A DNA stretch of 64,000 bases from Minisyncoccota bacterium (GCA_041663025.1 JBAZRE010000002.1:27703-91702), one strand, 5' to 3'. Shown: positions 186 through 55,011, counted from the stretch's first letter. A program made the numbers and translations. The notes: a model not told the origin generated them from the sequence alone.

Positions 186-584
186 ATGAAGTACGAGGTC
201 AATTTCAGGCCTTATACTGAAAGGCATTTCATCCGGACTTTTGCGAAGAAATACAAAGGCGCGTGGGATAAAACGCTCAAATCACTTGTTGTGGAATTTA
301 CTTTTGCCGATGTCCTGTTTGAGAAAAGTATTGCAGAAACTATTTGCATCTCTGCCGATAACGACATACGGATTTGTAAGACGGAGTTTAAAATTCTTGG
401 TACCGAAGTGTCCCGGCATGCATCGGGTAATAGATGTATTATCGCCGTACAAAAAAGCACAGCGATTGTACAAGTACTTCTTGTTTACGCAAAAGGCGAT
501 ATTAGAGGATCAAACGAAACTGCTGGCTGGAAAACTGTCATAAAAGATAATTACTCTGAATACAGAGAACTTTTAAACCCGTAA
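186..584 (+). CDS. hypothetical protein (132 aa)
   Basis: ORF starts 2 nt after the preceding ORF, suggesting a co-transcribed pair. Its TAA stop lies inside palindromic element 579-617. Confidence 0.35.
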   Translation: MKYEVNFRPYTERHFIRTFAKKYKGAWDKTLKSLVVEFTFADVLFEKSIAETICISADNDIRICKTEFKILGTEVSRHASGNRCIIAVQKSTAIVQVLLVYAKGDIRGSNETAGWKTVIKDNYSEYRELLNP

Positions 585-617
585 GGTGACACCTCGCGGC
601 GAGGAGTCACCTTACGG
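579..617. repeat. palindromic element family 1 (CCGTAAGGTGAC..CTCGCGGCGAG..GTCACCTTACGG)
   Basis: Near-perfect 39-bp palindrome. Related copies at 1380, 1832, 11838, 31218, 34087, 54967 and 54991. Supplies the stop codon of ORF 186-584. Confidence 0.8.
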
Positions 618-645
618 GGTGCGGGTACGTGCGTGATGGTATAAT

Positions 646-1047
646 TTGCAAATGAACACATACGAAACGTACCAAACATTGATCAAGCCCGAATGGGCGC
701 CGCCGGCGTGGGTGTTTGGGCCCGTGTGGATGGTGCTGTATGCCATTATGGTTATCTCATTTGGCAAGGTGTTCTATCGGGCTTTCATCAAGAAGGATAT
801 GTCGTGGAGAATCGCTCTCCCGTTTGTTCTCAATCTCATTTTCAATTTCTCTTTTACCTACTTCCAATTCGGATTAAAAAATAACACCCTCGCCGCAATC
901 GATATCCTCCTCGTCTTAAGCACGCTCATCTGGGCGATGATTGCTATATATCCGCGGATGAGATGGGTCGCGCTCGCTAACATCCCGTATCTCGCATGGG
1001 TCAGCTTCGCGACGGCTCTCCAACTAACCATCACGTTTCTTAACTAA
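646..1047 (+). CDS. TspO/MBR-family tryptophan-rich membrane protein (short form)
   Basis: N-terminal KPEWAPPAWVFGPVWMVLY matches the TspO signature (kPsW.PP..vFgpvW..LY). Multi-TM, 133 aa. Confidence 0.5.
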   Translation: MQMNTYETYQTLIKPEWAPPAWVFGPVWMVLYAIMVISFGKVFYRAFIKKDMSWRIALPFVLNLIFNFSFTYFQFGLKNNTLAAIDILLVLSTLIWAMIAIYPRMRWVALANIPYLAWVSFATALQLTITFLN

Positions 1048-1055
1048 ATATAAGC

Positions 1056-1373
1056 ATGAGCAACAAATACATTGAATACCTGAAGAATAATCCGCAGGGG
1101 TACTGGTTCAAGCGCAAGCTCTATGGCTGGGGCTGGGTCCCAGTGCGATGGCAGGGTTGGGCGGTGGTCGCTGTTTCAATGCTTTATATTGTCTTGGTTT
1201 CTCTGGACTTCTCCGAACAGGCAGAACTCGCGAAGGCGCTCGGCGCAGATCCGACAAATGGGGACCTAATTTCTTTTTTCGCCAAGATTGCGCTCGCCGT
1301 CGTCGTGATAATCAGCTTCTGCTATTGGAAGGGTGAGAGCCCGCGCTGGCAGTGGGGCGTCCCTAAGGATTGA
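1056..1373 (+). CDS. hypothetical small membrane protein
   Basis: 105-aa ORF with two hydrophobic helices. Tightly spaced after the previous gene. Confidence 0.4.
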   Translation: MSNKYIEYLKNNPQGYWFKRKLYGWGWVPVRWQGWAVVAVSMLYIVLVSLDFSEQAELAKALGADPTNGDLISFFAKIALAVVVIISFCYWKGESPRWQWGVPKD

Positions 1374-1379
1374 AATTAA

Positions 1380-1431
1380 TCCGTAAGGTAAACCCGTAAG
1401 GAGACACCTCGCGGCGAGGAGTCACCTTACG
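1380..1431. repeat. palindromic element family 1, extended copy
   Basis: ccgtaaggtaaacccgtaaggagacacctcgcggcgaggagtcaccttacgg, located 3' of ORF 1056-1373. Confidence 0.8.
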
Positions 1432-1830: not shown

Positions 1831-1831
1831 A

Positions 1832-6206: not shown

Positions 6207-6231
6207 CATGTAGGACGTAGTACGTCCTACA
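6207..6231. terminator. palindrome family 3 (ATGTAGGACGT..ACGTCCTACAT) between convergent genes
   Basis: Perfect 11-bp arms between the recD-like gene (+) and the HAD gene (-). A second copy lies in-frame inside dnaX at 35947. Confidence 0.5.
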
Positions 6232-6277
6232 TAAAAATATGGCCTAAAACCTAGCTTTTTTGTGAATTCTGTGGATG

Positions 6278-7048
6278 TCAGACATCCGCAAGAAGTTCTT
6301 TTATGAGAGTGGCAGTTTCGGAGGGATCTTTAACACTTTTTGTTTCAGCAGAAGTTTTAAATACTGCTTCGTCGTTGCCGCCAGCAGTGAGCTCGTCGCC
6401 GACGTAGAGCGATTCGGATTCATCAATACCGAGACGCTTGCAGAGCTGGCGAACGCCGTAGGCTTTATCAATATCACGTTTGGTGACATCGATCGTCGTC
6501 GCACCGCCCATGCCAACTGAAAAGTTTGGCAGGCGCGCAGCGATCGCCGCTTGGAGCGCATGGCGCTTGGTGTGATCGGGATCCCACGCCTTCTTCTCAA
6601 CGATCGGTGCTTCTTGGCCGAGCGCTGACATCGTCACTTGTCCACCGCGATACTCGATGCGCTCGCCCCACGCCGGCTCAGCAAAATTGATAAGGCCGGT
6701 CTCCTCGGCCGCCGCGCGCATCGCCGCGGCGATAGTATCCGACTCTTTTTCTGAAAGGCGTTCTTCATAAATTTTATCCCAGCCGCCACTGTCTACTCGG
6801 AGAGAATGTGAAGGATGGAATTCGTAGAGTGCGGCACCGGATGTGGGGAGCAGATAGAGATTCGCGAGATTCGCATCGACGGGGAGCCTCGCGACGACCT
6901 GTTTTAGGAATTGTGAGAATGCACCGCCCGAGACGATTGCTACTTTTATGCGCTTCAACAGTTCACAAAGCCTCACTGCCATTTCTGGCGAAATGGGCTG
7001 CTTGCTCTCGGCTAGCGTGCCATCTAAATCGAAAATGATTAGCTTCAT
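6278..7048 (-). CDS. HAD-IIB hydrolase, phosphomannomutase-like
   Basis: MKLIIFDLDGTL motif I followed by an SGG motif. Length and fold resemble eukaryotic-type PMM/Cof-type HAD. Overlaps the upstream GH130 gene by 4 nt, suggesting an operon. Confidence 0.55.
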   Translation of the reverse strand: MKLIIFDLDGTLAESKQPISPEMAVRLCELLKRIKVAIVSGGAFSQFLKQVVARLPVDANLANLYLLPTSGAALYEFHPSHSLRVDSGGWDKIYEERLSEKESDTIAAAMRAAAEETGLINFAEPAWGERIEYRGGQVTMSALGQEAPIVEKKAWDPDHTKRHALQAAIAARLPNFSVGMGGATTIDVTKRDIDKAYGVRQLCKRLGIDESESLYVGDELTAGGNDEAVFKTSAETKSVKDPSETATLIKELLADV

Positions 7049-8973
7049 GTCAGCGCGTCGACAATATGCGCGAGCGAGGCGGTCGCGACACCGAGCACTT
7101 TATCTGCTGCGCCGTAGTAGAGGAAGATCGTGTCACCGCGCACGACCGCGCCGCAAGAGAAGACGACGCGTGCCACGGTACCCTCTTGTTCATATTTCTC
7201 AAGCGGCTCGAAGATCGGGTCGGCGGTGCGCGCAAGGACTGTTATGCCGTCGGTGTCGAGAAGTGCCGCGCCGAGGCGATATGTCGACTTGCGCGAGACG
7301 CCGTGATAGATCATTAGCCACTTGTCGCCTTGACCTGGCACACTGACTTTAATAGGTGGGACAGCACTCCCGACCTTCAATCCATCCCACATGCCGTGTC
7401 GTGGAGCTATAACCTCGATGCAGCGGCTCGCGCGCTTGCCTGAAGAGAGATCGGGCAAGAGATCAGCAACAATCCTGTTGTTGACACGGTGGTAGAGAAG
7501 ATAATTCTCACCGATTTTTTCTGGCAAGAGCGCGAGGTCCTTATCATCGACGCCGTCGGGCGTGAGAATGAATGGCACACTCCATTTCTCCCACTGCCGC
7601 GCGACGAAGTCGTCAACACTGATTGATGAGATTGCTCCCGCCGGCACCCGCACACCATCATAGGCGGTGTAGGTCATGTGGAGCGTGTTGTCGATGCGCA
7701 CGATGCGCGGATCCTCGCAGCCAGAATTGCCGGTTGGGCTGCTGTGCTTCATTTCAAAATCGGCACGAGGCACATAGATCGGCTCAGTTAAACGTTCGTC
7801 GATAGCACTACCATCTTTAGAGACTGCGAGCCCGACGGTAGAGGTGTTCGCCTTATCCATCGCGCGATAGAGGATATACGCCGAGCCGTCAATATCGATC
7901 GCAGCAGCGTTCATCACCTCACCGCTCTCGAACCCTTCGCCTTGGGGCGAGAGAATGGGATTGTTCGCAGAACGGATGAATGTGCGCGCGGGTCGCTCAG
8001 GGTCAAGCGCGCGCAAGAGATCAGCAAGCTTCACTCGCGCCTTGGCGCAGACGGTATCTGCTGCGCCATACCAGATCTCGAGAAGGCCGTCTGCATCAAC
8101 AGAAGTGCTGGTGGGGAACACGATGTCAGGGACGAAGCCGTATTCTTCATAAAATTCTTGTGGCACAAAGATAGGCTCAGTGCATGAGATACGCTTCTGT
8201 GGATTGTCGCGGCTCAGGAGTTCCGCCTCGAAGGAGAAAACACGCTTGTCGCCGGCGTGGTAGTCCTGAATATAAGAATAGATCAGTAACCAGCCGTGTT
8301 CGGTCAGGATCGGTGCTGCACCGACCTCAACATGGTCTTGGTCAGTCCAGCGCATCTCGGTGAGTGCATGATCGGAGAGGTGGTCGTGCCAGCGATGCCA
8401 ATATTCGTGGTCAAAGAATTCTTCAATCTTTTTTGCACGTGCGATCGCAATGGTCGGCCACGGATGATCATCTGTTCGCTCGGTGTGCGCGGTGAGCAGC
8501 AGCACAATATCGCCGTCAATGCGCTCGGGGAAGAGGGTCGCGGCCTTGGCATTAAAAGGCGTGATGAGATGTCGCTCGGTAAAATTATCTGGTGAGTCGC
8601 CGATCGCGAGGGCGACCTTAATATTGTCAGCGCCGAAGGGATAGCCGCCGAGCGCAGTGTAGAAACAGTACCACCTACCCTCAAAGAAGCTTACGCGCGG
8701 ATCCTCGCAGCCGAAGTGATCCCATTTTTCTTGTGGCGCGATCACCTGTTGCCTTGATGAGAAGTGGACGCCATCTTCGGCAAAGGCGGTGCCGATAGTA
8801 GAGAGATTCGGGTGCGTCCCTAGGGCATCTTGTGATCCGACTGCGCGATAGAAGAGGCGTACACCCTCTGGAGTACGCACAGCTGATGGATTAAAAGTGG
8901 CTATAGATTCCCAAGGTCGCTCGCGTTGCGGCGCGATTATGGGGTTATGTGGCTCTCGTCGGATGACAAACAT
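7045..8973 (-). CDS. tandem two-domain GH130-family glycoside phosphorylase (DUF377)
   Basis: Two repeats of a beta-propeller module. Each carries FNP(S/A), GCEDPR and YG(A/G)AD motifs. Confidence 0.7.
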   Translation of the reverse strand: MFVIRREPHNPIIAPQRERPWESIATFNPSAVRTPEGVRLFYRAVGSQDALGTHPNLSTIGTAFAEDGVHFSSRQQVIAPQEKWDHFGCEDPRVSFFEGRWYCFYTALGGYPFGADNIKVALAIGDSPDNFTERHLITPFNAKAATLFPERIDGDIVLLLTAHTERTDDHPWPTIAIARAKKIEEFFDHEYWHRWHDHLSDHALTEMRWTDQDHVEVGAAPILTEHGWLLIYSYIQDYHAGDKRVFSFEAELLSRDNPQKRISCTEPIFVPQEFYEEYGFVPDIVFPTSTSVDADGLLEIWYGAADTVCAKARVKLADLLRALDPERPARTFIRSANNPILSPQGEGFESGEVMNAAAIDIDGSAYILYRAMDKANTSTVGLAVSKDGSAIDERLTEPIYVPRADFEMKHSSPTGNSGCEDPRIVRIDNTLHMTYTAYDGVRVPAGAISSISVDDFVARQWEKWSVPFILTPDGVDDKDLALLPEKIGENYLLYHRVNNRIVADLLPDLSSGKRASRCIEVIAPRHGMWDGLKVGSAVPPIKVSVPGQGDKWLMIYHGVSRKSTYRLGAALLDTDGITVLARTADPIFEPLEKYEQEGTVARVVFSCGAVVRGDTIFLYYGAADKVLGVATASLAHIVDALT

Positions 8974-9596: not shown

Positions 9597-10775
9597 TCAG
9601 GTTTCTTGTGCGGGGATTGTCGTGAGGGAAGTCTGATTTCCCTTTATAATTGCATCAAGGAAGTCGTCCAGTGGCGCGGTCGCGACGCAGACGACCTTGT
9701 CCGCACCTCCATAGTAGACAAAGAGAGTCCCTTCGCGCACGACAGCGCCGCAGGCATAGACGATGCCCGGCTTCCCGGCGTTCTCGTAGTGTTCATCTGG
9801 CTCGATAACGGGCGCAACAGCGCGATAAAGAATCTTGGTCGGGTCAACGAGATCAAGCAGCATTGCGCCGAGCTTGTAGCGACTCGGCTCGTGTGCGTCA
9901 TGTGCATGATAGAAGACGAGCCATCCCTTATCTGTGCGGAGGGGCGGCGGGCCAGCACTGCGCACGTGCGTGTGCCAGGCGACAAGCATGTCAGGTACTC
10001 TTTGCGGATCGGGACTCGTGAATTTCCTCAGGGTCAGGTCTGCGAGATCATCAATGAATTCTACACGCACATGATTTTCATCATCGCCGATAATACTATG
10101 CAGAATAGCGAATTGCCCCGCAATTTTTTCTGGGAACAACATCCAATTTTTTTCTCGGTCGCTGTGCGTGAGAACGATTGGTCCCTCCCACCGGTGAAAT
10201 TGTTTTGCGAGGAAATCTTCTTCACTCATTGAGATCACCCCAACGCGGAGCATCCAATTTTCAAACATATTGAAGGTGACATAGACGCACCCATCTATAA
10301 CGACCATACGCGGATCCTCACACCCGCCCCAGCTACCGCCCGAGGGATACATCACTGGAGAATAACGGCGGCGCGAGCCAGGCAGGCTCCCGCCAGGGTT
10401 GCGCGATGCATAGGCGGGATATGGCAGACGCTCGTCGAATGTGATGCCATCAGCGCTTGAAGCGTAGCCAATGCGCGAGACGCCGTCGGTGCCTACCGCG
10501 CGATAGAGAAGGTGTGTCCGGCCGCCGATGACGGCCGCCGCCGGATTCAATACCGCCTCCGCGGTCCACGGATGACTCCCCGGTTTGAGGATTGGATTAC
10601 GAGAAGATTTGCTGAGTAAAAGGCGACGGAGATGCAGAATCTCCACTAGTTTTTCTCGAATAGGTTTCGAGAAAGCAGCACCAAGAATCGCTCCGACAAC
10701 GAAGAAGGAAAAGAGCAAAGCGATCATGTTCACGATGAAGGGGAATGTCATAGAAAGCTCTGTTAACAATACCAT
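9597..10775 (-). CDS. membrane-anchored GH130-family glycoside phosphorylase
   Basis: N-terminal TM helix followed by a single GH130 module carrying GCEDPR and YGGADK motifs. Confidence 0.7.
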   Translation of the reverse strand: MVLLTELSMTFPFIVNMIALLFSFFVVGAILGAAFSKPIREKLVEILHLRRLLLSKSSRNPILKPGSHPWTAEAVLNPAAAVIGGRTHLLYRAVGTDGVSRIGYASSADGITFDERLPYPAYASRNPGGSLPGSRRRYSPVMYPSGGSWGGCEDPRMVVIDGCVYVTFNMFENWMLRVGVISMSEEDFLAKQFHRWEGPIVLTHSDREKNWMLFPEKIAGQFAILHSIIGDDENHVRVEFIDDLADLTLRKFTSPDPQRVPDMLVAWHTHVRSAGPPPLRTDKGWLVFYHAHDAHEPSRYKLGAMLLDLVDPTKILYRAVAPVIEPDEHYENAGKPGIVYACGAVVREGTLFVYYGGADKVVCVATAPLDDFLDAIIKGNQTSLTTIPAQET

Positions 10776-11267: not shown

Positions 11268-11840
11268 ATGCTAAACATCGGAGCCCTTATGGGGTTTTTC
11301 CTTTTGTCAGGAGCCACTATGGCAACCGCACCAGCGAGTGTCCCTGTTGCGCCTGCGTTACCGAGCTATCCAGTGACGCTTACCGCCTATAATGCTGTGC
11401 CAGAACAGACCGATGACAGCCCACTTGAGACGGCGTCTGGTGCGTACTCAAATCCAGAAATTATCGCGGCTCGCTCGCAAGATCTCGCGAAGGAGCTCCC
11501 CTTCGGCACCATCGTTGAGCTCGTGATTGAGGGACCAGTTCTATCAGGGAATTCGTGCGGCTACAACATCGTCAAACCGATCATCGGTTATCGCGTTATC
11601 GCTGACACGATGAACGCGCGCTACACAGATCGCATTGACGTGCTTTTTGATACCGATTCAAACTACACACTTGCTGATGGTAAGGTGAAGAATGCTGGCA
11701 TGATACTTGGTATCTGTAATGGCATTACCGCGCGTGTTGTTGGTTTCGTAAATCTAAACAAAACGAGTCGCATCCCAAAGACACAATCTGAGCTCGTCGC
11801 GCTCGTAAACGGTACGAGTAAGACTATTGCGCTCAAATAA
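11268..11840 (+). CDS. 3D-domain (RlpA/MltA-like DPBB) secreted protein
   Basis: Signal peptide. TAYNAVPEQTDDSPLETASG and DRIDVLFDTD match 3D-domain conserved Asp motifs. Confidence 0.6.
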   Translation: MLNIGALMGFFLLSGATMATAPASVPVAPALPSYPVTLTAYNAVPEQTDDSPLETASGAYSNPEIIAARSQDLAKELPFGTIVELVIEGPVLSGNSCGYNIVKPIIGYRVIADTMNARYTDRIDVLFDTDSNYTLADGKVKNAGMILGICNGITARVVGFVNLNKTSRIPKTQSELVALVNGTSKTIALK

Positions 11841-11873
11841 GGTGACTCCTCGCCGCGAGGTGTCTCCTTACGG
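11838..11873. repeat. palindromic element family 1 (reverse orientation)
   Basis: taaggtgactcctcgccgcgaggtgtctccttacgg is the reverse complement of the core at 1401-1427. Overlaps the stop of the 3D-domain gene. Confidence 0.75.
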
Positions 11874-14924: not shown

Positions 14925-15326
14925 ATGACAAAAAAGAAACCGGTATATCCGGAGGGTGTCGTAGTGAAAAAATCGAGCGCAGGTATGGGGCTTTTTGCGA
15001 CCAGACCCTACAAGAAGGGTGAGCGTGTCATAGAGTATGTTGGCCGCTTTCTCGCACCAGGAGAGGAATATTCCAGCCGAAGCAAATATCTTTTTGAAGT
15101 TACGAAGAAGAAAACGATTGATGGCACAATGCGCGAAAATATTGCGCGCTACATCAATCATTCGTGTAAGCCGAATTGTGATCCAGAGATCGAGCGCGGG
15201 CGCATTTTTATTGATGCGATTAAAAACATCAAAACGGGTGAGGAATTTACTTATAATTATGGCGAGGAATATATCGATGAGCACATCAAGCCCTACGGAT
15301 GCCGGTGTGTGAAGTGTAAAAAATAA
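14925..15326 (+). CDS. SET-domain protein (putative lysine methyltransferase), paralog 1
   Basis: GxG..(F/Y)INHSCxPNC and C-terminal ELTYDY/EEFTYNYG plus post-SET Cys cluster (GCRCVKC). Confidence 0.7.
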   Translation: MTKKKPVYPEGVVVKKSSAGMGLFATRPYKKGERVIEYVGRFLAPGEEYSSRSKYLFEVTKKKTIDGTMRENIARYINHSCKPNCDPEIERGRIFIDAIKNIKTGEEFTYNYGEEYIDEHIKPYGCRCVKCKK

Positions 15327-15370
15327 AAAACAAGGGGCACCCTCGTTACGAGGGTGCCCCTTGTTTTTGC
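15325..15370. terminator. bidirectional rho-independent terminator
   Basis: caaggggcaccctcg-ttac-gagggtgccccttg flanked by an A-run and a T-run, between convergent SET and csp genes. Confidence 0.65.
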
Positions 15371-16382: not shown

Positions 16383-17621
16383 ATGTTTAACAAACGAACC
16401 CTCCTTCGCTTCGCTTCGGCGGGGCGCACGTATCTCGACTGTGCATCGGGCATAAATGGCAATCCATCATCTCCTCACACTGAAGGACGTCGTGCAAAGC
16501 TGATACTAGAAGACGCTCGGGTGACCATCGCACGTCTTGTTGAGGTACAGCCAGACGACGTAATTTTCACCAGCGGCGCGACCGAGGCGAACGCGCTCGC
16601 GATTCTTGGCAATTTAGGACTTACGAAGTCCCCAATATCAGGGCCAGTAATGTCAGGACTTCGTAAGTCCAAAATTCATATGCTCTATCTGCCGAGCGCG
16701 CACGCTTCTGTTGTTGAGAATATGAAATTGCTCAGTGAACGCGGTGTCGAAATTGAGGCACTTCCGATCAGGGACGGATGTGTTGATTGTGAAAAGTTGA
16801 AAGAGTTGTTGCGGCCAGAAACAAAACTGGTCAGTATGGATGCCGTCTGTGGAGAGACGGGTGTTATTTGGAACACAAGGGAAGTTGCAGAAACATTGAA
16901 AAGAACGCACAACGGAGGAAGCAATTTCCTTGCTCCTTCGGGCCTCATAGGAATGAGTCAGCCAGTCGCAGAGGAAACCACTTCCTCCTCCGTGCTCCAC
17001 GTTGACGCAAGTCAAGCGCCGCTGACTGAAAAAATAACTCGTGCGCATTTCGGTGCTGACCTGCTCACGCTTGACGGATCAAAAGTTGGCGCACGCGGCA
17101 TCGGCACTTTGATTGCACATCGCACCATTCCGATTTCTCCACTTTACTTAGGTGGAGGCCAAGAGCGAGGGCTTCGCCCGGGAACTGAAGTACCCGAGCT
17201 CGCAGAGAAGTTCGCGGCCTGCCTCCGGCAGGCCGCGCTTAGCCGCGAAGCATTTCTTGCTGCTGCAAAGAGAGATAGGGCAGAACTCATCAAGAAAATC
17301 TCGAGCATCCAACATATGTGCATAAACGAAGGCAGTAATCAATCTCCAAATATTTTAAACATTTCTCTTATTGGCCGTGACACTGATTATCTGGTCGCAC
17401 TCCTTGATGAAGCGGGATTCGCCGTCTCTACACGAAGCGCATGCGAGACCGATTCGCAGACGGGTTCTCGTGCCGTCTTTGCCATCACGGGAGACCAAGA
17501 TCGTGCTCGCGCGACATTGCGTATTTCCTGGGGGCCGAGCACTCGCTCGCGCGAATTGGTCCATTTTGCCAAAGCACTCGTACAGGCAGTCGCGTTTATT
17601 GACAGCAGTGACCAACGGTAG
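16383..17621 (+). CDS. class-V aminotransferase / cysteine desulfurase-like (IscS/NifS family)
   Basis: FTSGATEANALAI and SMDAVCGETG, with a PLP-fold pattern. Start 3 nt after the previous stop. Confidence 0.65.
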   Translation: MFNKRTLLRFASAGRTYLDCASGINGNPSSPHTEGRRAKLILEDARVTIARLVEVQPDDVIFTSGATEANALAILGNLGLTKSPISGPVMSGLRKSKIHMLYLPSAHASVVENMKLLSERGVEIEALPIRDGCVDCEKLKELLRPETKLVSMDAVCGETGVIWNTREVAETLKRTHNGGSNFLAPSGLIGMSQPVAEETTSSSVLHVDASQAPLTEKITRAHFGADLLTLDGSKVGARGIGTLIAHRTIPISPLYLGGGQERGLRPGTEVPELAEKFAACLRQAALSREAFLAAAKRDRAELIKKISSIQHMCINEGSNQSPNILNISLIGRDTDYLVALLDEAGFAVSTRSACETDSQTGSRAVFAITGDQDRARATLRISWGPSTRSRELVHFAKALVQAVAFIDSSDQR

Positions 17622-31709: not shown

Positions 31710-31743
31710 GTATAGCCAAAACGGGTGATATACTGGAGCGCAT

Positions 31744-35015: not shown

Positions 35016-35036
35016 GTTTTGCGTTATACTGCACCC

Positions 35037-37660: not shown

Positions 37661-37674
37661 AGGAGTATTATACA

Positions 37675-39159
37675 ATGACCATGAACATAGGACGGAACGA
37701 AAAATGCCCATGTGGAAGTGGTTTGAAATATAAAAAATGCCATATGGGAAAAGAACAAGATATGGGTAAAAATACCAAAAGATATCGTCATTTTTCGGGC
37801 GTTGTTTTCGATGGCTCTGGAGCCAATCTTTCGCTCTACGAAAAAAATATGACTTTGGTCGAAGCGATCATCGATATCTTTGGATTTACGGAAGGGCGAG
37901 ATTTAAGTGATATCAAGAGAACAGTCTCTCGCGAGCATGTAGCGGAATTGCATAAATTGGTGGCATGGCTTTGGCCACCTGATACGGACGTGACGAAATT
38001 TCTACCAGCCCCATCCAATAATTTGAGAGCACTCTATATGGGAAATATGCGGCCTCAAACAATTTTGAGAAGTGTCGGGAGATATTCGTTGTACTGCGAC
38101 GAAATACTGGTAATGGATCCTTTCATGAATCCATGGTTCATAGCACCTGACTACAATCCCATAATGCACCCAGAGGAGTACGTCTCTAATACATGGAAAT
38201 GGGTGTTATTTATTATCCAACTTGCACCATGGATATACGATAAACAGGTATTGTTGCTTCCAAACCCTCTCGACTTCGACTCGTCGTTGCGGAAAGAAAT
38301 GTGGGCTAGTGCGGAGAAACGATTAAATCCACAAAAGAACGATTTGCTGAAATTCCTCGAACAAGACGATTCCATGGGAGAAACTGCAAAAGAGGAATTT
38401 AAACGAACATGGATGTCTATTCCTGAATATGCACAACGAAAGAAAATAAAAGAGTTTGACAATAAAATGACGGAAGAAGAGGTCGATGGAATGATTAAGT
38501 ATATAGACAAAATGAAGGAAGAAGATCCTTACTTCGTGACAAATCCAAACGAAAAAGGAGGATTTGGTATCAGCACCCATACAATGGGCGGGAACTTGGA
38601 GCAGGGTTTATATATTTCTCAGCTAACCGGAGCTCATTTATACACAGATTTTGAATTTAGGTGGAGAGAGATTTTATCAGCTCAAACAGATACATCAGAA
38701 AAAAGCCCATGGAGTCCCATTGCGTATGGCTTCCAAAATCTCGATTTCAAATTTTTGGACGGCACAGATTTGAAATTCGTCCATAAAATAAAAGCAGACG
38801 GAAGATTGTCTAATTTGCGGAATTTCCTCCGAAAGACATGGAAAGAAGTATCAGCAGACGAGACACCAAATTATGAGAAGGCAAACAAACTTGCTTTGGA
38901 ATTTGCAGACGAACTGAAGGAACAGTATTCAAAAGCAGAGTCTGAATGGGAAGGTATAGACACAGATTTAACAAAATGGCTCTTGAGTAGAAGTGGGCTC
39001 GGGACCCTCGTTGCTACTGGAGGTGTAAATTGGACGATCCCCGCACTCGGCTTTGCAATGGAAGGCGTAAATCAGCTACTTACAGCACGGCATGAACGAA
39101 AGAATTTCAGGAAAAATGTACCACTTTCGGTCTTTGTTGATTTAAAAAAGAGAAAGTAA
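37675..39159 (+). CDS. SEC-C-motif protein of unknown function (494 aa)
   Basis: N-terminal CPCGSGLKYKKCH is a SEC-C zinc-binding motif. The rest has no recognised family. AT-rich gene, divergent from the recombinase with overlapping starts. Confidence 0.55.
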   Translation: MTMNIGRNEKCPCGSGLKYKKCHMGKEQDMGKNTKRYRHFSGVVFDGSGANLSLYEKNMTLVEAIIDIFGFTEGRDLSDIKRTVSREHVAELHKLVAWLWPPDTDVTKFLPAPSNNLRALYMGNMRPQTILRSVGRYSLYCDEILVMDPFMNPWFIAPDYNPIMHPEEYVSNTWKWVLFIIQLAPWIYDKQVLLLPNPLDFDSSLRKEMWASAEKRLNPQKNDLLKFLEQDDSMGETAKEEFKRTWMSIPEYAQRKKIKEFDNKMTEEEVDGMIKYIDKMKEEDPYFVTNPNEKGGFGISTHTMGGNLEQGLYISQLTGAHLYTDFEFRWREILSAQTDTSEKSPWSPIAYGFQNLDFKFLDGTDLKFVHKIKADGRLSNLRNFLRKTWKEVSADETPNYEKANKLALEFADELKEQYSKAESEWEGIDTDLTKWLLSRSGLGTLVATGGVNWTIPALGFAMEGVNQLLTARHERKNFRKNVPLSVFVDLKKRK

Positions 39160-39244: not shown

Positions 39245-39554
39245 TGTTGTATTACCCCCTCCAAAAACTCTTCGGCTTCTGAATTTTGAACCTGCATTGC
39301 AAGTCAGAGAAATCCCTTCTCCACCATACGCGGCGCTCTGCGCCGCGCGGGAAAATTTTTCAGAATCTGACCCAAGTTTTATTCGGGCTACATTATACGA
39401 CCAAGTCCGAACTTTTTTCCAGCGCGCCCAATGATTACTCGCCCGCTCGCAGACTCGCGGGCTCGCCGCCGCGGACGGCGGCCCCTCGCTCCTGCCGCTC
39501 TCTATGCTTTGTTTTTTGGCGGGGGATGTCTTTGGAAAAGGAATGGAGCGGCAG
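39245..39554. repeat. internal inverted att-like block X'Y (reverse complement of Y'+X)
   Basis: 39245-39388 is the reverse complement of X, and 39387-39554 is the exact reverse complement of 45953-46120. The junction shares only AGC with both outer sites. Confidence 0.75.
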
Positions 39555-39611
39555 GGCGAGGGTCGATTTTGGGTAAATAGCCCTATTGCCCCTTATGTTA
39601 TTATTTCTTAT

Positions 39612-40451
39612 ATGCCCACGACGAACATAATTCGCGCTCTAGTAAACCTCGCGACAGCGAGAAATTTTGATCTCCCGGATGGTCCACAAGGGGCAAACCG
39701 AATTACAACCGTGGGTGCTCCGTTGGAATGCTTCATCAGAGATGCTTTTTGTAATTCCGCGCAAATTACGGATTTGCGCGAAAAAGAAACCGCCCATCGG
39801 GAGCATTTGTCATATCTCGGAAATTCAAAAAATCCGCCGGATTTTGTCATAAGAGCGGGCGATGCCGTAGAAGTTAAGAAAATCGAAAATCCGCTGTCAG
39901 GAATCGCGCTCAATAGTTCTTATCCTAAAGACCATATATACGTCGACGACCCGATGCTCTCCGCGGGATGCCGAGACTGTGAAGAAGGATGGCAACAGAA
40001 GGATTTAATTTATGCCATTGGAGTGGTTTCTGAAAATACAATCCAGTCCCTGCTATTCGTTTATGGAGATTGTTATGCAGCTAATCGCGAAGTATACGAA
40101 AGAATAAAGCAAAGAATTATCGCTGGGGTTGCACAATCGGAAGAAGTTGAATTCTCGGACACGAACGAACTTGCAAGGGTCAATCAAGTTGACCCGTTAG
40201 GCATTACTTATTTGCGAGTGCGAGGAATGTGGGGAATAGAAAATCCGCGCCGCGTTTTTGCTGACCTTAATTTCAATTCAAGAGAAGGTAGACCACTTGT
40301 TGCAACAATAATGCTCAGGTCAAAGTTTGAAAGTTTTCCTACCGAGGATAGGAATGCTCTAGCACAAGCTGCGGATAGGATTGAAGACATACAGATACGA
40401 AACCCTAACAACCCGGCACAGATGCTTGATGCAAAACTCATCGTCTTATGA
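39612..40451 (+). CDS. putative Type II restriction endonuclease (PD-(D/E)xK)
   Basis: NPPDFVIRAGDAVEVKK is a PD..x10..EVK catalytic motif. Overlaps the downstream C5-MTase by 4 nt. Start trimmed to ATG 39612. Confidence 0.55.
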   Translation: MPTTNIIRALVNLATARNFDLPDGPQGANRITTVGAPLECFIRDAFCNSAQITDLREKETAHREHLSYLGNSKNPPDFVIRAGDAVEVKKIENPLSGIALNSSYPKDHIYVDDPMLSAGCRDCEEGWQQKDLIYAIGVVSENTIQSLLFVYGDCYAANREVYERIKQRIIAGVAQSEEVEFSDTNELARVNQVDPLGITYLRVRGMWGIENPRRVFADLNFNSREGRPLVATIMLRSKFESFPTEDRNALAQAADRIEDIQIRNPNNPAQMLDAKLIVL

Positions 40452-41497
40452 AAATCATTTCTCTTTTTACTGGTGCTGGCGGACTTGATCTTGGGTTCAA
40501 GAAAGCTGGTTTTGACATTGTATGGGCAAATGAATACGACCCGGTAATTTGGGATACTTTTGAATCAAATTTCCCAGAGACGATACTAGATCGGAGAAGC
40601 ATAACTGACATACCTGCATCTGATGTTCCTGACGCATTTGGAATGATAGGCGGACCCCCGTGTCAGAGTTGGAGCGAAGCTGGAGCTGGTCGTGGAATTA
40701 ATGACAAGCGAGGTCAATTATTCTTTGAATACATCCGCCTCATTAAAGAAAAGCAACCGCTATTTTTTCTAGCCGAAAATGTTTCAGGCATTCTTTTTCC
40801 GCAACATGAAAAAGCATTTAGTACGATACTCAAGCAATTTAGCGATGTTGGCTACAATGTTAAATATCAACTATTGAATGCCAATGACTACGAGGTTCCT
40901 CAAGACCGCTTGCGCGTTATCGTAATCGGATATAGAAAAGACCTCGGTATTAGTTTTGAATTTCCAGAACCGCAACCCAAACGCCTTACTTTGCGCGATG
41001 CAATTTTTGATCTCCGCAACGCAAAACAAGCAAAAGAATTCAACAAGACAAACGGCGATGCACTTGAAATTCCAAATCACGAATATATGAATGGCGGTTT
41101 TTCAACGATTTATATGTCACGCAACCGAGTTCGTTCATGGGACGAACCGTCTTTCACTATTCAAGCCGGCGGTCGTCATGCTCCAATCCATCCGCAAGCG
41201 CCAAAAATGAAGTTCGTCTCGCAAAATGTGAGAATATTCGTTCCGGGTAAAGAAAAACTCTATCGCCGTTTATCAGTTCGCGAATGTGCACGGATACAAA
41301 CATTTCCTGACAACTTCATTTTCAAGTATAGAGATGTCGCAGACGGCTACAAGATGATAGGCAATGCAGTACCGGTCGAATTTGCTCATCACATTGGCAA
41401 AAAGATATATGCGGACCTTATTGCTGTAGGCAAGGTTCCTAGTCCTTACGACAAATTGTTCAAGGACAAGAAAACTCAAAATGTTCATCTACAATGA
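40448..41497 (+). CDS. dcm: DNA (cytosine-5)-methyltransferase
   Basis: Motif I FTGAGGLDLGF, motif IV GGPPCQSWS, motif VI ENV, and C-terminal GN(A/S)VPV-like motif. Confidence 0.9.
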   Translation: MKIISLFTGAGGLDLGFKKAGFDIVWANEYDPVIWDTFESNFPETILDRRSITDIPASDVPDAFGMIGGPPCQSWSEAGAGRGINDKRGQLFFEYIRLIKEKQPLFFLAENVSGILFPQHEKAFSTILKQFSDVGYNVKYQLLNANDYEVPQDRLRVIVIGYRKDLGISFEFPEPQPKRLTLRDAIFDLRNAKQAKEFNKTNGDALEIPNHEYMNGGFSTIYMSRNRVRSWDEPSFTIQAGGRHAPIHPQAPKMKFVSQNVRIFVPGKEKLYRRLSVRECARIQTFPDNFIFKYRDVADGYKMIGNAVPVEFAHHIGKKIYADLIAVGKVPSPYDKLFKDKKTQNVHLQ

Positions 41498-41527
41498 GAG
41501 AAAAACTAGTCTAATTAACTAGACCAT

Positions 41528-43162
41528 ATGTATATATCACACGCGAAAATTTCTAATTTCAGGGCTCTACAAGAGGTAGATGTTCCTCTTAATAAATGCT
41601 CGATTCTACTCGGAGAAAATGATGTGGGGAAAACATCTTTTCTCTTGGCACTTGACCGATTTTTTGCAAACAAGAAGATTTCAGACGAGGAAGATTTCTT
41701 TAATCGGGATACTTCGGCGGATATAACTTTAACGCTTACTTTCTCTGATTTACCTACAGACCCAACACTAGATTCAATTCAAAAAGCAGACGGGACGATT
41801 ACAGTTCGAAAAACCTTTTCATTTAATGAGACACCCGATACCAAAGCAATTATGGACGATTCTTCCACAAAGGCTGTGGACAAGTCGATTCTAAACGACT
41901 TACTATCAAGCGACGCGTTCCACTTCATTCCCGTGCGCAGAGATCTCAGTGTTCAATTTTCGATGACAAAAACTTCACTTCTAGGGAAAACTTTACGGGT
42001 ACGAATGCACGAAGCAATTAAAAATAATGACGCCGACCAATCTTTAGGGAAAGTTGAACAATTGCTTGTCGAAGCGATTAAGGGACCGCAGGAAGAATTA
42101 CAGGCTTTTTTAAGAGAGCAAATGCACAACGAAGACATGCGTCTCGTTTTCGACGCGCTAAATGTTGACCCAATAGAGGGGGTTTCGTTTAAAGTGAAAC
42201 TGGGCGATGACAAGATTGAAGATATTCTTGTGGAAAATCGCGGTGCCGGAACACAAAACAACCTAATAATCGCCTTATTCAGGCTCGTTGCTGGTCTTCA
42301 TGTTGAAGGAAAACTAATCTTTGCTATGGAAGAGCCAGAGAACAGTCTTCATCCTAAAGCACAAAGGCAACTATTTTCAGTACTCCAAGAAGTCAGCGAA
42401 AAATCTCAAGTCATTATTACTACTCACTCGCCAGTCTTTCTAGAAAGGAGCAGTTTTGAAAATAACATTATCCTTACCCGAACGGCAAAAGGAAATACTG
42501 TGGCTAAAGTATTTGACCATACACAACTAGAGGAGCTTAGAACAGATTTGGGTATCCGTCCTTCTGATGCTCTCCTTAAGGGTGGAGGTAATTGCGCAAT
42601 TCTTGTAGAAGGCAATACTGAGGAGGAGGCATATCCAATCTTTATGGAAATGCTTGGTCTAAGCGAATTCAAGCTGGGAATTGCGATAGTTAATATGCGC
42701 GGTAGCGATACTTCATTGGTTAGTAACACTGCTCGATTGCTAGGAGCATATGATATCCCGTGTGTGGTAGTACTAGATCAAGATGCCAAAGCAACTGCTG
42801 ATGATATCGTACGCGAAAGTAATGCTGGTCTTAAAAATGTTAAGAAAGTCTTTTGCTTAACCCAAGGAACAATGGAGGACTACTATCCTTTAGATATAGT
42901 GGCTGAAGTTATCAATCAAAGTTTTAATCCGACTCAGGCAGTAGTAGTTGCTGATTTTGATGATTCAAAACACGGTGCGGATAGGCTTAGTGACTTTAAG
43001 AAAGTTATGTACGAGAAAGGATTGGGTAAATCGCTAGGATACCTCAAAAGATTAATAGGTTCGAACGGTACTAAAATTATGAAAGAGAAAGGATTACCCG
43101 TGCCCGAAGAACTGGCGGGAGTGTTTGCAGAGGTAGTCAAGATTGTAAATGAAGGAGTTTAG
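41528..43162 (+). CDS. OLD-family / PARIS-like ATP-dependent nuclease (ABC-type ATPase + TOPRIM)
   Basis: Walker A GENDVGKTS, Walker B/D-loop VIITTHSP after EPENSLHP, C-terminal TOPRIM (ILVEGNTEE..VVVLDQDAKA). AT-rich. Confidence 0.7.
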   Translation: MYISHAKISNFRALQEVDVPLNKCSILLGENDVGKTSFLLALDRFFANKKISDEEDFFNRDTSADITLTLTFSDLPTDPTLDSIQKADGTITVRKTFSFNETPDTKAIMDDSSTKAVDKSILNDLLSSDAFHFIPVRRDLSVQFSMTKTSLLGKTLRVRMHEAIKNNDADQSLGKVEQLLVEAIKGPQEELQAFLREQMHNEDMRLVFDALNVDPIEGVSFKVKLGDDKIEDILVENRGAGTQNNLIIALFRLVAGLHVEGKLIFAMEEPENSLHPKAQRQLFSVLQEVSEKSQVIITTHSPVFLERSSFENNIILTRTAKGNTVAKVFDHTQLEELRTDLGIRPSDALLKGGGNCAILVEGNTEEEAYPIFMEMLGLSEFKLGIAIVNMRGSDTSLVSNTARLLGAYDIPCVVVLDQDAKATADDIVRESNAGLKNVKKVFCLTQGTMEDYYPLDIVAEVINQSFNPTQAVVVADFDDSKHGADRLSDFKKVMYEKGLGKSLGYLKRLIGSNGTKIMKEKGLPVPEELAGVFAEVVKIVNEGV

Positions 43163-46660: not shown

Positions 46661-47083
46661 ATGAAAATTGGCATTATCGGCAGCATGCAATATACCGAGC
46701 AGATGGTGAAGGCGCGTGATGATTTGCGGGCGCTCGGACATGACGCTTTTCTTACTGACCTGCACAAAACTCTTGTGGGCAAGAGCGATGAAGAAAAAGA
46801 GGTAATAAAAATAGAGCAAAAAAATAATCAAGACGCTATCCGAGAATTTTGGCACCAGATGCAAGGCGCAGATGCGGTGTTAGCGGTCAATCTCGATAAG
46901 CATGGTATCAAAAATTATATTGGTGGAAACACTCTTATGGAGATCGGATTCGCGCATGTGTTGAATCAGAAGATTTATCTCCTGAACCCGATTCCCTGCA
47001 TCTCGTTCTACAAGTCTGAAATAGAAGCAATGCGCCCTACTATCCTCAACGGTGACTTGTCTCTCATCAAGGTTAAACCTTGA
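46661..47083 (+). CDS. nucleoside 2-deoxyribosyltransferase-like protein
   Basis: MKIGIIGSM Rossmann start, GADAVLAV..GGNTLMEIGFA resembles the Nuc_deoxyrib_tr fold (sD.v.a...G.D.GT.fEiGyA). Confidence 0.5.
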   Translation: MKIGIIGSMQYTEQMVKARDDLRALGHDAFLTDLHKTLVGKSDEEKEVIKIEQKNNQDAIREFWHQMQGADAVLAVNLDKHGIKNYIGGNTLMEIGFAHVLNQKIYLLNPIPCISFYKSEIEAMRPTILNGDLSLIKVKP

Positions 47084-47285
47084 TATCTACTGCTCAATGA
47101 ATCGCGCGGAAGGCGCGGATGTGTCGTTGTCGCCGGAACTCCCACAGCTCTCTCTTGCGAGCAAAAAAGGCAAAGAGCCTCTCAATGGATTTTTTCATTC
47201 CCTAGATAGACGATGATGATAGCTGATTCTTACATATGATAAAAAACGGCCACGCACGTGACCGTTTTTTACTACGTGTTCGTTG

Positions 47286-52648: not shown

Positions 52649-52685
52649 ACGGGATTATTACGCCTAGGCTGATGTAAGAATCTAG

Positions 52686-53384
52686 ATGTATCTCCGTCTC
52701 CCCTCACATACCATGAAAAAGATGATTGCCGTGGCAGTATTTCTTGTATCCTCGACCGCATTTGTCTTTGCGCGACAGTCTGCGGTGGCGACAGCGGCGC
52801 AGAGTGTTCAAGATGTCCCTGAGAGTATGGCGAACATAAACGAGAATGATGCGACCACTTCAGACATGCTCGCCTCTCAGATACAAGCACTTGAGGCGAA
52901 TATCTCGCAAATAGAAAGTGCAAATATTGAAGCGGCATCTGTCTTGAGCCAAGTCGTGACAGCGGTATCGAAACCAAAACCGCAAGTTTCTCCGACAGTG
53001 CGGATTACACCAGTCGCAATGCCGACCTCTACACCTATCGTGACACGGGTGCCGACAACAACTCCTGCCGCGATCGTCGTCTACGGTCAATCGACCTATA
53101 ACAGCGGCAATGGTGTGCTCTTATATGCCAACGGGACTCCAGTTACCGCTCCGGATGGTGCGCGGCAAAGTTCAAATGGGTATTGGTATCTTGGTGGGCA
53201 GATCTATGCGATTGGTCCAGAAATCGGGATTCCATACACACCAGAGACAAACATCGTGTATGAGCAAGCCCCTATTATTACTCCTACTATCGTTGCTTCC
53301 GTGACGCCATCACCAGCACCAGTTCTCGTATCAACAAGCACTTCGCGTTCACGCACGCGTCACGAAGAGCGTGATGATGATTAA
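52686..53384 (+). CDS. secreted hypothetical protein (coiled-coil + Pro/Thr-rich)
   Basis: Signal peptide. Shares N-terminal coiled-coil architecture with the next gene. No recognised domain. Confidence 0.4.
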   Translation: MYLRLPSHTMKKMIAVAVFLVSSTAFVFARQSAVATAAQSVQDVPESMANINENDATTSDMLASQIQALEANISQIESANIEAASVLSQVVTAVSKPKPQVSPTVRITPVAMPTSTPIVTRVPTTTPAAIVVYGQSTYNSGNGVLLYANGTPVTAPDGARQSSNGYWYLGGQIYAIGPEIGIPYTPETNIVYEQAPIITPTIVASVTPSPAPVLVSTSTSRSRTRHEERDDD

Positions 53385-53386
53385 GT

Positions 53387-54199
53387 ATGAAGAAGATATT
53401 TTTACCAATTGTTTTTATCGGCGTTTCTTTTTTATATATGTTCTCGCGCAGTCCTGCGGCAGTGCTCGCGGGACTCTCCGATAGTTCCAACACAAGTGCA
53501 GGGACTGACATCACCATCCCCACCACGGTAAGCAGTACAACAACAAGTCTCGCGAGTAGCACTGAATCGCTTTCTGTGCAGCTAGCGATGCTTCAGGAGC
53601 GTCTTGCAAAACTGGAGAGTGCTAAAAAATCAGCACCGCAAACACGCATTGTTGTTATTCCAGCGGCGCCAGTTCCAGAATCATTCCCAGCGCCAGATTC
53701 CCCAGTTCAAGAGCCCGTTGTCTCGATACCGATGACCCTAGAACCAACACCGACACCAGCAGCACCCACTCTGGTTCCAGTGGTTGTTATTCCTCCGCCA
53801 CCATTCACCACACTTCCTCAGACTCCTCTTCCAGCGCCAATACTCCCGTCGACAACGCCTGCGCTAGCATCAACGCCAACACCTCCTCCCGCTCCCACAC
53901 CTCCGCCTGTGCCGGCCGGCCCTAAAGATGGCACCTATACGGGGAGTGTCGCTCAAGCTGGAAGTCGTGGCCCTGTCCAAGTACAGGTGGTGATTGCAGG
54001 AGGAAAAATCACCAACATCAGCTTCCTCTCTTCTCCAACCGCATCTCCGGTCTCAGTTTCTATCTTTGACACAGCGTCACCGACGCTCGTGCAAGAAGCT
54101 ATTGCAGCGCAGAGTGCGAACGTGACAACCGTTTCAGGAGCTACGCTTACCAGTAATGCATTTAAACAATCACTTGCGTCGGCGCTCGCGCAGGCGTGA
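53387..54199 (+). CDS. FMN-binding-domain protein with long Pro/Thr-rich linker
   Basis: Signal/anchor, coiled-coil, roughly 90-aa P/T-rich spacer, then FMN_bind domain with TTVSGAT flavinylation motif. Confidence 0.65.
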   Translation: MKKIFLPIVFIGVSFLYMFSRSPAAVLAGLSDSSNTSAGTDITIPTTVSSTTTSLASSTESLSVQLAMLQERLAKLESAKKSAPQTRIVVIPAAPVPESFPAPDSPVQEPVVSIPMTLEPTPTPAAPTLVPVVVIPPPPFTTLPQTPLPAPILPSTTPALASTPTPPPAPTPPPVPAGPKDGTYTGSVAQAGSRGPVQVQVVIAGGKITNISFLSSPTASPVSVSIFDTASPTLVQEAIAAQSANVTTVSGATLTSNAFKQSLASALAQA

Positions 54200-54214
54200 A
54201 GAGGGATGTAGCAT

Positions 54215-54997
54215 ATGATCATCATGAGGATCAGAGACGTGCGGCTTATCATGGGCATGCCCATAGAAATTGAGATTGTAGATGACAGCGCGAGAGACAC
54301 ACTCGAATCCGCCTTCGCATATCTCGTGTCTGTCGATGAACGTTTCAGTACGTATAAAGAAGACAGTGAAATTTCGCGTATCAATCGCAGTGAGATTGAA
54401 TCAGATGTCGTGAGTGTCGAGATGCGGGAAGTTTTTGCCATCGCTGAGAAGACAAGAATAGAAACAAACGGATACTTTAATATCAAAAAACCTGATAGCA
54501 CTATTGATCCTTCAGGTATTGTGAAGGGATGGGCGATACGCAATGCTGCCGCGCTTATCCGCGAAGCGGGATATGAGCATTATTTTGTGAATGCCGGTGG
54601 CGACATTGCGACGAGTGGTAAAAATATCGATGGAGGTGAGTGGAGTGTTGGTATCCGCAATCCCTTCAACAGTAATGAAATTGTGAAAGTGGTCTATCCA
54701 CACGGGAAGGGTATCGCAACCTCTGGTTCATATATCCGGGGGAATCATATCTACAATCCCCACAATACAAAAGAAGAGTTGCATGACATCGTGAGCATCA
54801 CGGTCATAGGCCCTGATGTTCTTGAAGCCGATCGTTTTGCGACTGCAGCGTTTGCAATGGGAAAGGGCGGCATCACTTTTATTGCACAACTATCGGGTTT
54901 TGAAGGCTACGCCATAAATGTGGACGGTATTGCTACGATGACGAGCGGCTTCGCCGAATATACAAATCCGCAAGGTGACACCTTACGGCAACCGTAA
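54215..54997 (+). CDS. apbE: FAD:protein FMN transferase (ApbE family)
   Basis: ApbE core motifs (SEISRIN, GIVKGWA, VNAGGDI, GIATSGSY). The last 9 codons and the TAA stop are encoded by a family-1 palindromic element. Confidence 0.8.
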   Translation: MIIMRIRDVRLIMGMPIEIEIVDDSARDTLESAFAYLVSVDERFSTYKEDSEISRINRSEIESDVVSVEMREVFAIAEKTRIETNGYFNIKKPDSTIDPSGIVKGWAIRNAAALIREAGYEHYFVNAGGDIATSGKNIDGGEWSVGIRNPFNSNEIVKVVYPHGKGIATSGSYIRGNHIYNPHNTKEELHDIVSITVIGPDVLEADRFATAAFAMGKGGITFIAQLSGFEGYAINVDGIATMTSGFAEYTNPQGDTLRQP

Positions 54998-55011
54998 GGT
55001 GTCACCTTGCG
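54967..55011. repeat. two tandem inverted family-1 short palindromes (ccgcaaggtgacaccttacgg caa ccgtaaggtgtcaccttgcgg)
   Basis: The first copy encodes the apbE C-terminus PQGDTLRQP. The TAA of ccgTAAgg is the stop codon. Confidence 0.75.

Follow-up and report, generated by a model that had tools for sequence, protein, structure and literature searches.

Among dispersed short palindromes, the closest described counterparts of the repeats reported in this study are the repetitive extragenic palindromic (REP) sequences of Proteobacteria, which carry at one end a conserved tetranucleotide, GTAG or CGTC (Di Nocera 2013, PMC3733652), and affect translation when they lie within 15 nt of a stop codon (PMC12306157), and the Rickettsia palindromic elements (RPEs), which occur in frame in unrelated housekeeping genes and add a peptide that the protein fold seems to tolerate (review PMC10969869). 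Here we describe very short palindromic repeats, of at least five families, in a 64,000-nt stretch of DNA (GCA_041663025.1 JBAZRE010000002.1:27703-91702; hereafter, the window) from the genome of an uncultured Candidatus Paceibacterota bacterium, where they supply the stop codons and C-terminal residues of six genes and also lie in frame inside others. The host belongs to the candidate phyla radiation (CPR; Patescibacteria), the genomes of which are held to be streamlined and poor in repeats, and the window itself is about 92% coding according to a curated gene map that draws on Pfam hits and on the gene calls of L165, an independent metagenome assembly that is 99.98% identical over 10.4 kb. 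The assignment to Candidatus Paceibacterota agrees with database entries of that annotation that match its ApbE, Dus and ORF 186–584 proteins at 100% identity. Relatives were compared at the loci L081, L083, L084, L085, L086, L087, L089, L090, L167 and L168. We consider it likely that the repeats are dispersed short palindromes of the REP/REPIN and RPE kind that are lineage-wide and actively maintained, placed on gene ends and in frame within genes.

Families of very short palindromic repeats

The repeat units are 13–15 nt long and commonly pair into compound hairpins of about 35–60 nt (39–62 nt in the window). We located 18 element loci in the window, of which eight are intragenic and in frame and nine lie no more than 8 nt from a stop codon; five of the stop-proximal hairpins hold the stop codons of six genes. 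Grouped by family, the loci are as follows.

Family 1, CCGTAAGG-TGAC-ACCTT..., simple or compound
578–618: compound hairpin CCCGTAAGGTGACACCTCGC-G-GCGAGGAGTCACCTTACGGG, holding the TAA (582–584) of open reading frame (ORF) 186–584; dG −33.2
1376–1437: compound hairpin that has part of a further 5′ arm (CCGTAAGGT at 1381), 7 nt past the stop of ORF 1056–1373
1832–1852: simple palindrome CCGTAAGGTGACACCTTACGG, 1 nt past the TAA of ORF 1456–1830
11838–11873: compound hairpin TAAGGTGACTCCTCGCCGCGAGGTGTCTCCTTACGG, the first three bases of which are the TAA of ORF 11268–11840
31217–31239: variant ACCGTAAGGCGACGCCTTACGGT followed by TTTTT, in the 538-nt dprA–serS spacer
34086–34137, + strand: three-arm element inside dus, encoding QGDSSRKVTPRSEVSPC; shared at this site by L081, L083 and L084
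54967–55013: double element, a perfect 22 + 22 palindrome at the junction of apbE and a convergent gene; dG −43.8
Family 2, CAAGGTTCGACCTTG, with a 13–14-nt spacer in the compound form
28828–28866, − strand: compound (AAGGTCGAACCTT-13 nt-AAGGTTCGACCTT) inside topA, encoding RSNLKSDSQGSTL
33383–33438, + strand: compound inside the hypothetical gene 32978–33841, encoding ATRFDLNASSSRSNLV
34965–35026: compound hairpin between dus and dnaX, with the dus TAA (34981–34983) within it; dG −36.5
47066–47084: single unit ATCAAGGTTAAACCTTGAT, coding for IKVKP and the TGA (47081–47083) of ORF 46661–47083
Family 3, CAAGGGGCACCCT
15326–15368: hairpin CAAGGGGCACCCTCG... flanked by A5/T5, resembling a terminator on both strands and overlapping the stop of a SET gene by 1 nt
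23608–23644, − strand: palindrome inside miaA, encoding KQGCPLLQGAPLL
Family 4, GGACTTCGTAAGTCC doublets
16611–16676, + strand: compound (GGACTTACGAAGTCC-24 nt-GGACTTCGTAAGTCC) inside a NifS-like gene, an 11-residue insert relative to solved homologs
33842–33883: compound hairpin directly after the TAG of gene 32978–33841, 40/43 identical to its L081 ortholog
34738–34779, + strand: compound inside dus ('site 2'), kept in L081, L083, L084 and L086
Family 5, TGTAGGACGT...
6208–6232: palindrome ATGTAGGACGT-AGT-ACGTCCTACAT, 1 nt past the Pif1 stop
35946–35972, + strand: palindrome inside dnaX, encoding NVGRPTSYI

Against a background of shuffled sequence, enrichment of the families ranged from 13-fold to more than 100-fold. 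The family 1 motif CCGTAAGG occurs 12 times where 0.97 are expected, a count that none of 100 shuffles reached, and all 12 copies sit inside palindromic elements, one of them (1381) as a partial extra arm. The family 1 core AGGNGNCNCCT was observed 13 times (0.5 expected), the family 2 core AAGGT-N3-4-ACCTT 10 times (0.06 expected) and GGACNT-N3-ANGTCC 7 times (0 expected), while perfect palindromes numbered 18 at a stem of at least 10 (0.4 expected) and 9 at a stem of at least 12 (0 expected). Every element is predicted to fold stably, with dG between −8.5 and −43.8 kcal/mol and z between −4 and −10. In the 10 kb of the same genome upstream of the window, we found four further family 1 loci, one within the last 9 codons of a gene and three about 1–20 nt past stops, bringing family 1 to 11 loci in 74 kb.

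Likeness between copies extends beyond the palindromic arms. The copies at 578–618 and 1393–1432 share 39 of 40 positions and those at 11839–11873 and inside dus 32 of 33, while the non-palindromic family 2 spacer GAGRAT(T)CGGATTT is common to topA, the dus 3′ end and copies in L081, L084, L085 and L087; copies so nearly identical at unlinked loci are too alike for convergence. Since the 578–618 sequence is identical in L165 and L166, which are two independent assemblies, it is no assembly artefact.

Searches for described relatives of the repeats returned little. An Rfam scan at the gathering threshold reported tRNAs only and no family matching the elements, and E-value scans across the elements hit only models of microRNA precursors, all below threshold and amounting to generic hairpins. 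The family 1 and family 2 consensus sequences have zero exact matches in viral contigs. Exact-protein look-ups with the window proteins ApbE and P0001 returned no record. A search of genome contigs with ApbE gave a best identity of 74% among the matches listed, and the motifs are rare in those 875 kb, which served as a negative control; the corresponding search of metagenome contigs with Dus gave a best identity of 68% among the matches listed. We found no account of comparable repeats in Patescibacteria in the full-text literature.

Stop codons and C-termini supplied by the repeats

The positions of three of the genes concerned are as follows.

33955–34983, + strand: dus, encoding a tRNA-dihydrouridine synthase, with three element loci (an internal family 1 copy, an internal family 4 compound and a family 2 copy at its stop)
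54224–54997, + strand: apbE, encoding a FAD:protein FMN transferase, within ORF 54215–54997
55002–55232, − strand: a small conserved gene convergent with apbE, 82% identical to a gene called in L084

The original prediction, made from the window sequence, held that the TAA within CCGTAAGG terminates both ORF 186–584 and apbE, and the positions it gave (582–584 and 54995–54997) are exact. In ORF 186–584 (+ strand), CCGTAAGG begins at 579, making TAA 582–584 its stop, and the product ends ...EYRELLNP*, where about 110 of 119 homologs end ...EYRxLL*; in the nearest relatives, L167 and L168 (88–89% identity), the stop follows straight after LL and the element is absent. The gene is conserved and is the downstream partner of one for an HTH_3 + SocA_Panacea protein (L165 9324–9998), the antitoxin candidate; it falls in no Pfam family and has 683 homologs at E ≤ 0.001, with top matches in Patescibacteria; it probably encodes the toxin of a Panacea-type toxin–antitoxin pair.

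In apbE, CCGTAAGG begins at 54992, so that the stop is TAA 54995–54997. The DNA of the tail reads CCG CAA GGT GAC ACC TTA CGG / CAA / CCG TAA and encodes PQGDTLRQP; the first 21-nt copy contributes seven residues, the 3-nt spacer a single one, and the inverted second copy the last residue together with the stop. That the last nine ApbE residues come from a family 1 element had been predicted, and all nine do lie within the double element. This tail is about 8–9 residues longer than in all 119 homologs, every one of which ends ...SGFxxYT plus 0–3 residues, and QGDTLR occurs in none of them; no element was found in the DNA of apbE orthologs (52–77% identity). On the opposite strand, the small convergent gene ends TCC GCA AGG TGA (SAR and TGA 55002–55004), which is the outer arm of the same palindrome, whereas in L084 the ortholog ends ...PSRCKVL*, with an ordinary terminator after it. 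The 47-nt palindrome at 54967–55013 thus contains both convergent stops, 4 nt apart.

The stop of dus was attributed to a family 2 variant, and TAA 34981–34983 indeed falls within AAGGTTAAACCTT, the window reading AAA CAA GGT TAA (KQG*). The 3′ hairpin is orthologous in L081, L084 and L089: dus ends AAC AAG GTT CGA CCT TGA (NKVRP*) in L081 and L084 (81–84% amino-acid identity) and AAA CAA GGT TCG ACC TTG TAA (KQGSTL*) in L089. In L083, the gene has no 3′ hairpin and ends RENPV*, a tail type that is widespread in distant orthologs. Relative to L081 and L084, the window copy differs in frame by 1 nt, a frame that it shares with L089, and a CG>AA change in one of its arms has its counterpart in CG>TT on the opposite arm. 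Because the hairpin is orthologous across relatives, it is old at this site; it has been remodelled in place and supplies the stop wherever it is present.

Three stops in elements had not been predicted. Besides the small convergent gene, ORF 11268–11840 ends on the TAA of TAAGGTGAC, and ORF 46661–47083 ends AAG GTT AAA CCT TGA (KVKP*), its 943 homologs typically ending ...GDLSKVV* or ...GDLSLLK*, about 3 residues shorter. Upstream of the window, a gene (L165 3039–3425) reads a family 1 copy in its open third frame and ends ...FRKVSPYDK*. Stop and tail donation is thereby shown for six window genes, and the predicted element-derived C-termini include ApbE ...EYTNPQGDTLRQP, Dus ...IAKQG and ...NWLPAHSAR in the small gene. 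For apbE, dus, topA, dnaX, the toxin gene and the hypothetical gene there are relatives without the element, in effect empty sites. When 3′ ends were compared as the original prediction had proposed, apbE, dus and ORF 186–584 all supported donation, and the same C-termini were not seen without the element. Its wording that the repeats are 'actively' reshaping gene ends suits the lineage-specific copies (toxin gene, apbE, topA and the hypothetical gene) but not the dus copy, which is old.

In-frame copies and nucleotide-level conservation

The eight loci in frame inside genes involve dus (two), topA, dnaX, miaA, the NifS-like gene and the hypothetical gene. After ...ADGLYHT.E, the Dus loop reads QGDSSR..EVSPC, encoded by family 1, in the window and in L081, L083 and L084, as well as in no fewer than five other orthologs from databases, while most orthologs have IQKMPDAE and some carry other inserts. 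At site 2, L085 and L087 carry a family 2 compound instead of the family 4 compound, in either orientation. In an AlphaFold (AF2) model of Dus, built from 30 sequences with an overall predicted local distance difference test score (pLDDT) of 71.5, residues 50–64 and 245–276, which cover both inserts, are coil with pLDDT <50, and the inserts coincide with the only long internal segments below that value; the model, of modest quality, is consistent with inserts that sit in permissive loops.

Presence and absence also vary at other intragenic sites. In topA, L083 lacks the 13-residue family 2 insert and L081 carries another palindrome at that point; relatives of the hypothetical gene carry a single unit in L084 and none in L081 and L083. 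Native residues align with the second arm of the element in the NifS-like gene, and its first arm and spacer make up the insert. The 27-nt dnaX palindrome is present in six related genomes, and more distant DnaX proteins without it are 6–7 residues shorter. Pairing of the dnaX hairpin is perfect in five relatives through compensatory changes (71/71 cells paired), with 5 of 12 pairs changed on both sides, while the encoded peptide varies (NVGRPTSYI, NVGHPMSHI, DVGFTKSNI). Comparison with element-free orthologs or homologs showed in-frame peptide addition of the RPE type at two sites in dus and in topA, dnaX, the NifS-like gene and the hypothetical gene. In miaA, an insertion is not demonstrated, the protein being only 3 residues longer than the solved structures. 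We also considered and rejected the dnaX hairpin as a programmed frameshift signal: no slippery sequence lies upstream, and the same stem is intergenic at 6208.

Further features of these coding regions were noted in passing. TopA has a second window-specific insert of 11 residues, DDSGKTKHEKR (29160–29200, residues ~100–111), which is absent in L081 and L083 and not obviously palindromic. GC-rich CGCG...CGCG palindromes occur in coding regions at 5739, 17213, 21069, 33027, 35738, 36218, 39329 and 39758, and L083 and L090 have kept the one in dnaX (35738–35760, encoding ALAAGERG).

In comparisons of the window with L081, L083 and L084, identity at the fourfold-degenerate third positions of dus and dnaX is just 40–51%, whereas orthologous elements are 81–98% identical, unpaired spacers and one intergenic copy included. 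Conservation this far above synonymous sites implies either constraint at the nucleotide level or homogenization by a copying process, and on these comparisons the elements appear to be maintained rather than decaying as junk.

Further features were noted around the elements. The dprA–serS spacer (31206–31743) measures 538 nt in the window compared with 22 nt in L081 and L083, and also holds an orphan ORF (31330–31656), for which a homolog search returned none, and a terminator-like hairpin (31676–31700). Downstream of dnaX, a large serine recombinase (~36200–37711, − strand) and a SEC-C-motif protein (37675–39159) lie between inverted repeats at 36176–36264 and 39301–39389 (89 nt, 99% complementary), the left arm of which starts inside the 3′ end of tRNA-Gln (36106–36180); the region looks like an integrated or invertible module, and in L083 the position after dnaX is taken by a different serine-recombinase island. 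Directly after the module lies a defence island (39504–43162) of low GC content (0.42–0.47) that encodes a restriction enzyme of the NgoPII type, a C5 methylase and a nuclease of the OLD family (AAA_15 + TOPRIM). Elsewhere, two GH130 (mannoside phosphorylase) genes, at 7045–8973 and 9597–10775, flank a small unknown ORF, a carbohydrate-metabolism gene content that is unusual for CPR.

Origin of the repeats and comparison with known systems

How dispersed palindromes of this kind could come to end genes follows from their consensus sequences. Family 1 arms put stop triplets in two of three frames (CCG-TAA-GG and AAGG-TGA-C), so that the frames read P-Q/stop-G-D-T-L-R, R-K-V-T-P and, in the third, TGA; family 2 likewise has stops in two of three frames, as CCT-TGA and as the variant GGT-TAA-ACC. 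Because the consensus arms carry stop triplets, a copy landing on, or drifting over, the end of an ORF would close it within a few codons and swap its native tail, and the copies observed inside ORFs fit this, having CAAGG rather than TAAGG or using the open frame, the only forms in which intragenic copies survive. The repeats would have spread or been homogenized by copying, whether through a trans-acting enzyme specific for hairpins or through template switching; we infer both this mobility and any function in RNA. At the RNA level, the hairpins may act as 3′-end, processing or termination structures, bidirectionally so between convergent genes.

We likewise entertain, as a minority view that we hold only tentatively, that the hairpins could be sequence-specific functional cis-elements, recognized, for instance, by a factor for RNA processing or termination, or by a hairpin-binding enzyme that has been domesticated. 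A Paceibacterota clade as a whole would then hold them under selection even inside housekeeping ORFs, nucleic-acid structure would dictate protein loops and tails there, and one palindrome could end two convergent genes both translationally and transcriptionally.

Several observations weigh against reading the repeats as a maintained, REP/REPIN- and RPE-like population. The DNA of the source genome covered here, the window and 10 kb upstream, comes to only about 74 kb. Among about 60 window ORFs and the called genes of L165, L081, L083 and L084, there is no transposase or REP-associated tyrosine transposase (RAYT), nor any PF01797-type match. Target-site duplications, which are typical of MITEs (miniature elements derived from insertion sequences), were not seen between filled and empty sites, the flanks of which are too diverged to judge. 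Covariation could arise mutationally by template switching rather than by selection (PMC8794818). A U-tract is missing from most family 1 hairpins, and several pairs of convergent genes do without a hairpin, leaving a general role in termination unproven.

The strongest alternative holds that the hairpins are neutral by-products of template switching during replication (quasi-palindrome mutation), a mutational process that makes hairpins and keeps them perfect with neither mobility nor function. The mechanism is documented (PMC8794818) and would account for perfect palindromes and for multi-base 'compensatory' changes, as well as for the NifS-like gene, where only the first arm and spacer are inserted beside native residues. 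Elements also carry extra partial or complete direct copies of an arm (1381–1389; 34086–34103 in dus; L165 7440–7455), and L083 dus contains a 30-nt tandem duplication (10117–10176), which suggests slippage or template switching at hairpins. Template switching may well contribute to perfect stems, arm duplications and one-step 'compensation', but it leaves unexplained why the same 13–40-nt sequences, loops and spacers included, recur at many unlinked loci and in several genomes, and why orthologous identity, unpaired spacers included, exceeds that of fourfold sites to the extent given above. As a full account, we regard it as unlikely.

The hairpins could instead be ordinary intrinsic terminators that evolved in place, with stop overlap arising from genome compactness and mutual likeness from common stem preferences. 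Some copies fit this description: in a terminator scan, T-runs were flagged at 15326–15368 on both strands, at 31217–31239 on the + strand and at 1832, 6208 and 54967–55013 on the − strand; the genome is densely coding, and a plain terminator follows the small-gene ortholog in L084. The scan did not flag the hairpins at 578, 1393, 11839, 34965, 47066 and 33842, and the shortage of U-tracts in family 1 means that the original prediction of 'terminator-like' structures holds for some copies only; similarly, of the intergenic hairpins that it assigned to the same families, those at 1832 and 31218 belong to family 1, whereas those at 6207 and 33842 are of other families (GGAC...GTCC type). Copies of 33–40 nt that are near-identical at unlinked loci and share non-palindromic spacers, eight loci inside ORFs, and the presence of different families in the same protein loops of different lineages also speak against terminators, an explanation that we judge improbable.

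Uptake signals of Neisseria and Haemophilus occur as inverted pairs at gene ends and at permissive coding positions. By analogy, the repeats could be DNA-uptake signals of a naturally competent CPR bacterium, accumulated by uptake bias, and short, over-represented, lineage-specific motifs that occur in terminator-like inverted pairs and inside ORFs, along with the presence of dprA, would be compatible with that. With 12 of 12 copies of CCGTAAGG in palindromes, no free single-orientation copies apart from partial arms (1381) and not one signal but at least five unrelated families, we think this very improbable. Coincidence or assembly artefact, for which nothing speaks beyond the small number of genes involved, has a practically negligible chance in the face of the shuffle statistics, the identical sequence in independent assemblies and the orthologous copies in other metagenomes.

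Two narrower candidates were set aside. The elements do not match the palindromes of NgoPII (GGCC) restriction sites. Pairing between Shine–Dalgarno and anti-Shine–Dalgarno sequences, which the family 1 stems (AAGGAG/CTCCTT) resemble, is made less likely by the distance of 23–60 nt between hairpins and the next start codons.

Should the pattern prove general, such repeats would cause annotation errors, in the form of wrong stops and spurious 'insertions' in housekeeping proteins, and would drive the evolution of protein tails and loops. They would also offer a tractable case for the persistence of REP-like sequences, in which function, a copying enzyme and self-correction by template switching can be set against one another, and the 47-nt apbE palindrome is a compact natural test of the coupling between hairpins, translation termination and transcription termination.

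Compared with known systems, the repeats resemble REPs, bacterial interspersed mosaic elements (BIMEs) and REPINs, the RAYT-mobilized repeats of Proteobacteria, in being short imperfect palindromes with many copies, a family consensus and a placement just after stops, and in their long persistence and vertical inheritance. REPINs are doublets of inverted units with a spacer (PMC3337134), as are the family 2 and family 4 compounds with their 12–24-nt spacers. Unlike REPs, the units here are smaller (13–15 nt), reside in a CPR host and have no RAYT in the DNA examined, and whereas REPs 'seldom overlap protein-coding regions', 8 of the 18 loci lie inside ORFs and 5 hairpins hold stops. The GTAG/CGTC tag is absent except in family 5: families 1–4 begin CCGTAAGG, ACAAGG or TAGGGAC, and GTAG occurs only in ATGTAGGACGT.

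With RPEs, the repeats share in-frame occurrence in unrelated housekeeping genes. RPEs, however, measure about 100–150 bp, form the families RPE-1 to RPE-10 and are confined to Rickettsia, whereas the elements here are 20–62 nt long, belong to Paceibacterota, supply stop codons and form perfect hairpins conserved with compensatory changes; no resemblance in sequence is evident, although the two were not compared directly. The miniature transposable elements with inverted repeats known as MITEs (ERIC, BOX, Correia and SPRITE) are likewise small non-autonomous repeats that make in-frame ORF fusions and are in some cases terminator-like (PMC10969869), but here the whole element is an inverted repeat without inner sequence, about ten-fold smaller and with no related insertion sequence detected. 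Rho-independent terminators are similar in forming stable, GC-containing hairpins at gene ends, some copies having A/T tracts on both sides, and differ in that most family 1 and family 2 copies lack a U-tract, fall into sequence families and also occur inside genes. DNA uptake sequences and uptake signal sequences (DUS/USS) consist of one motif in mostly single, non-palindromic copies, in contrast to the several palindromic families here. In-frame MITE and RPE fusions and the effects of REPs near stops are thus established already; what appears to be new is their counterpart in a CPR lineage, in conserved repeats of unusually small size that are embedded in coding sequence.

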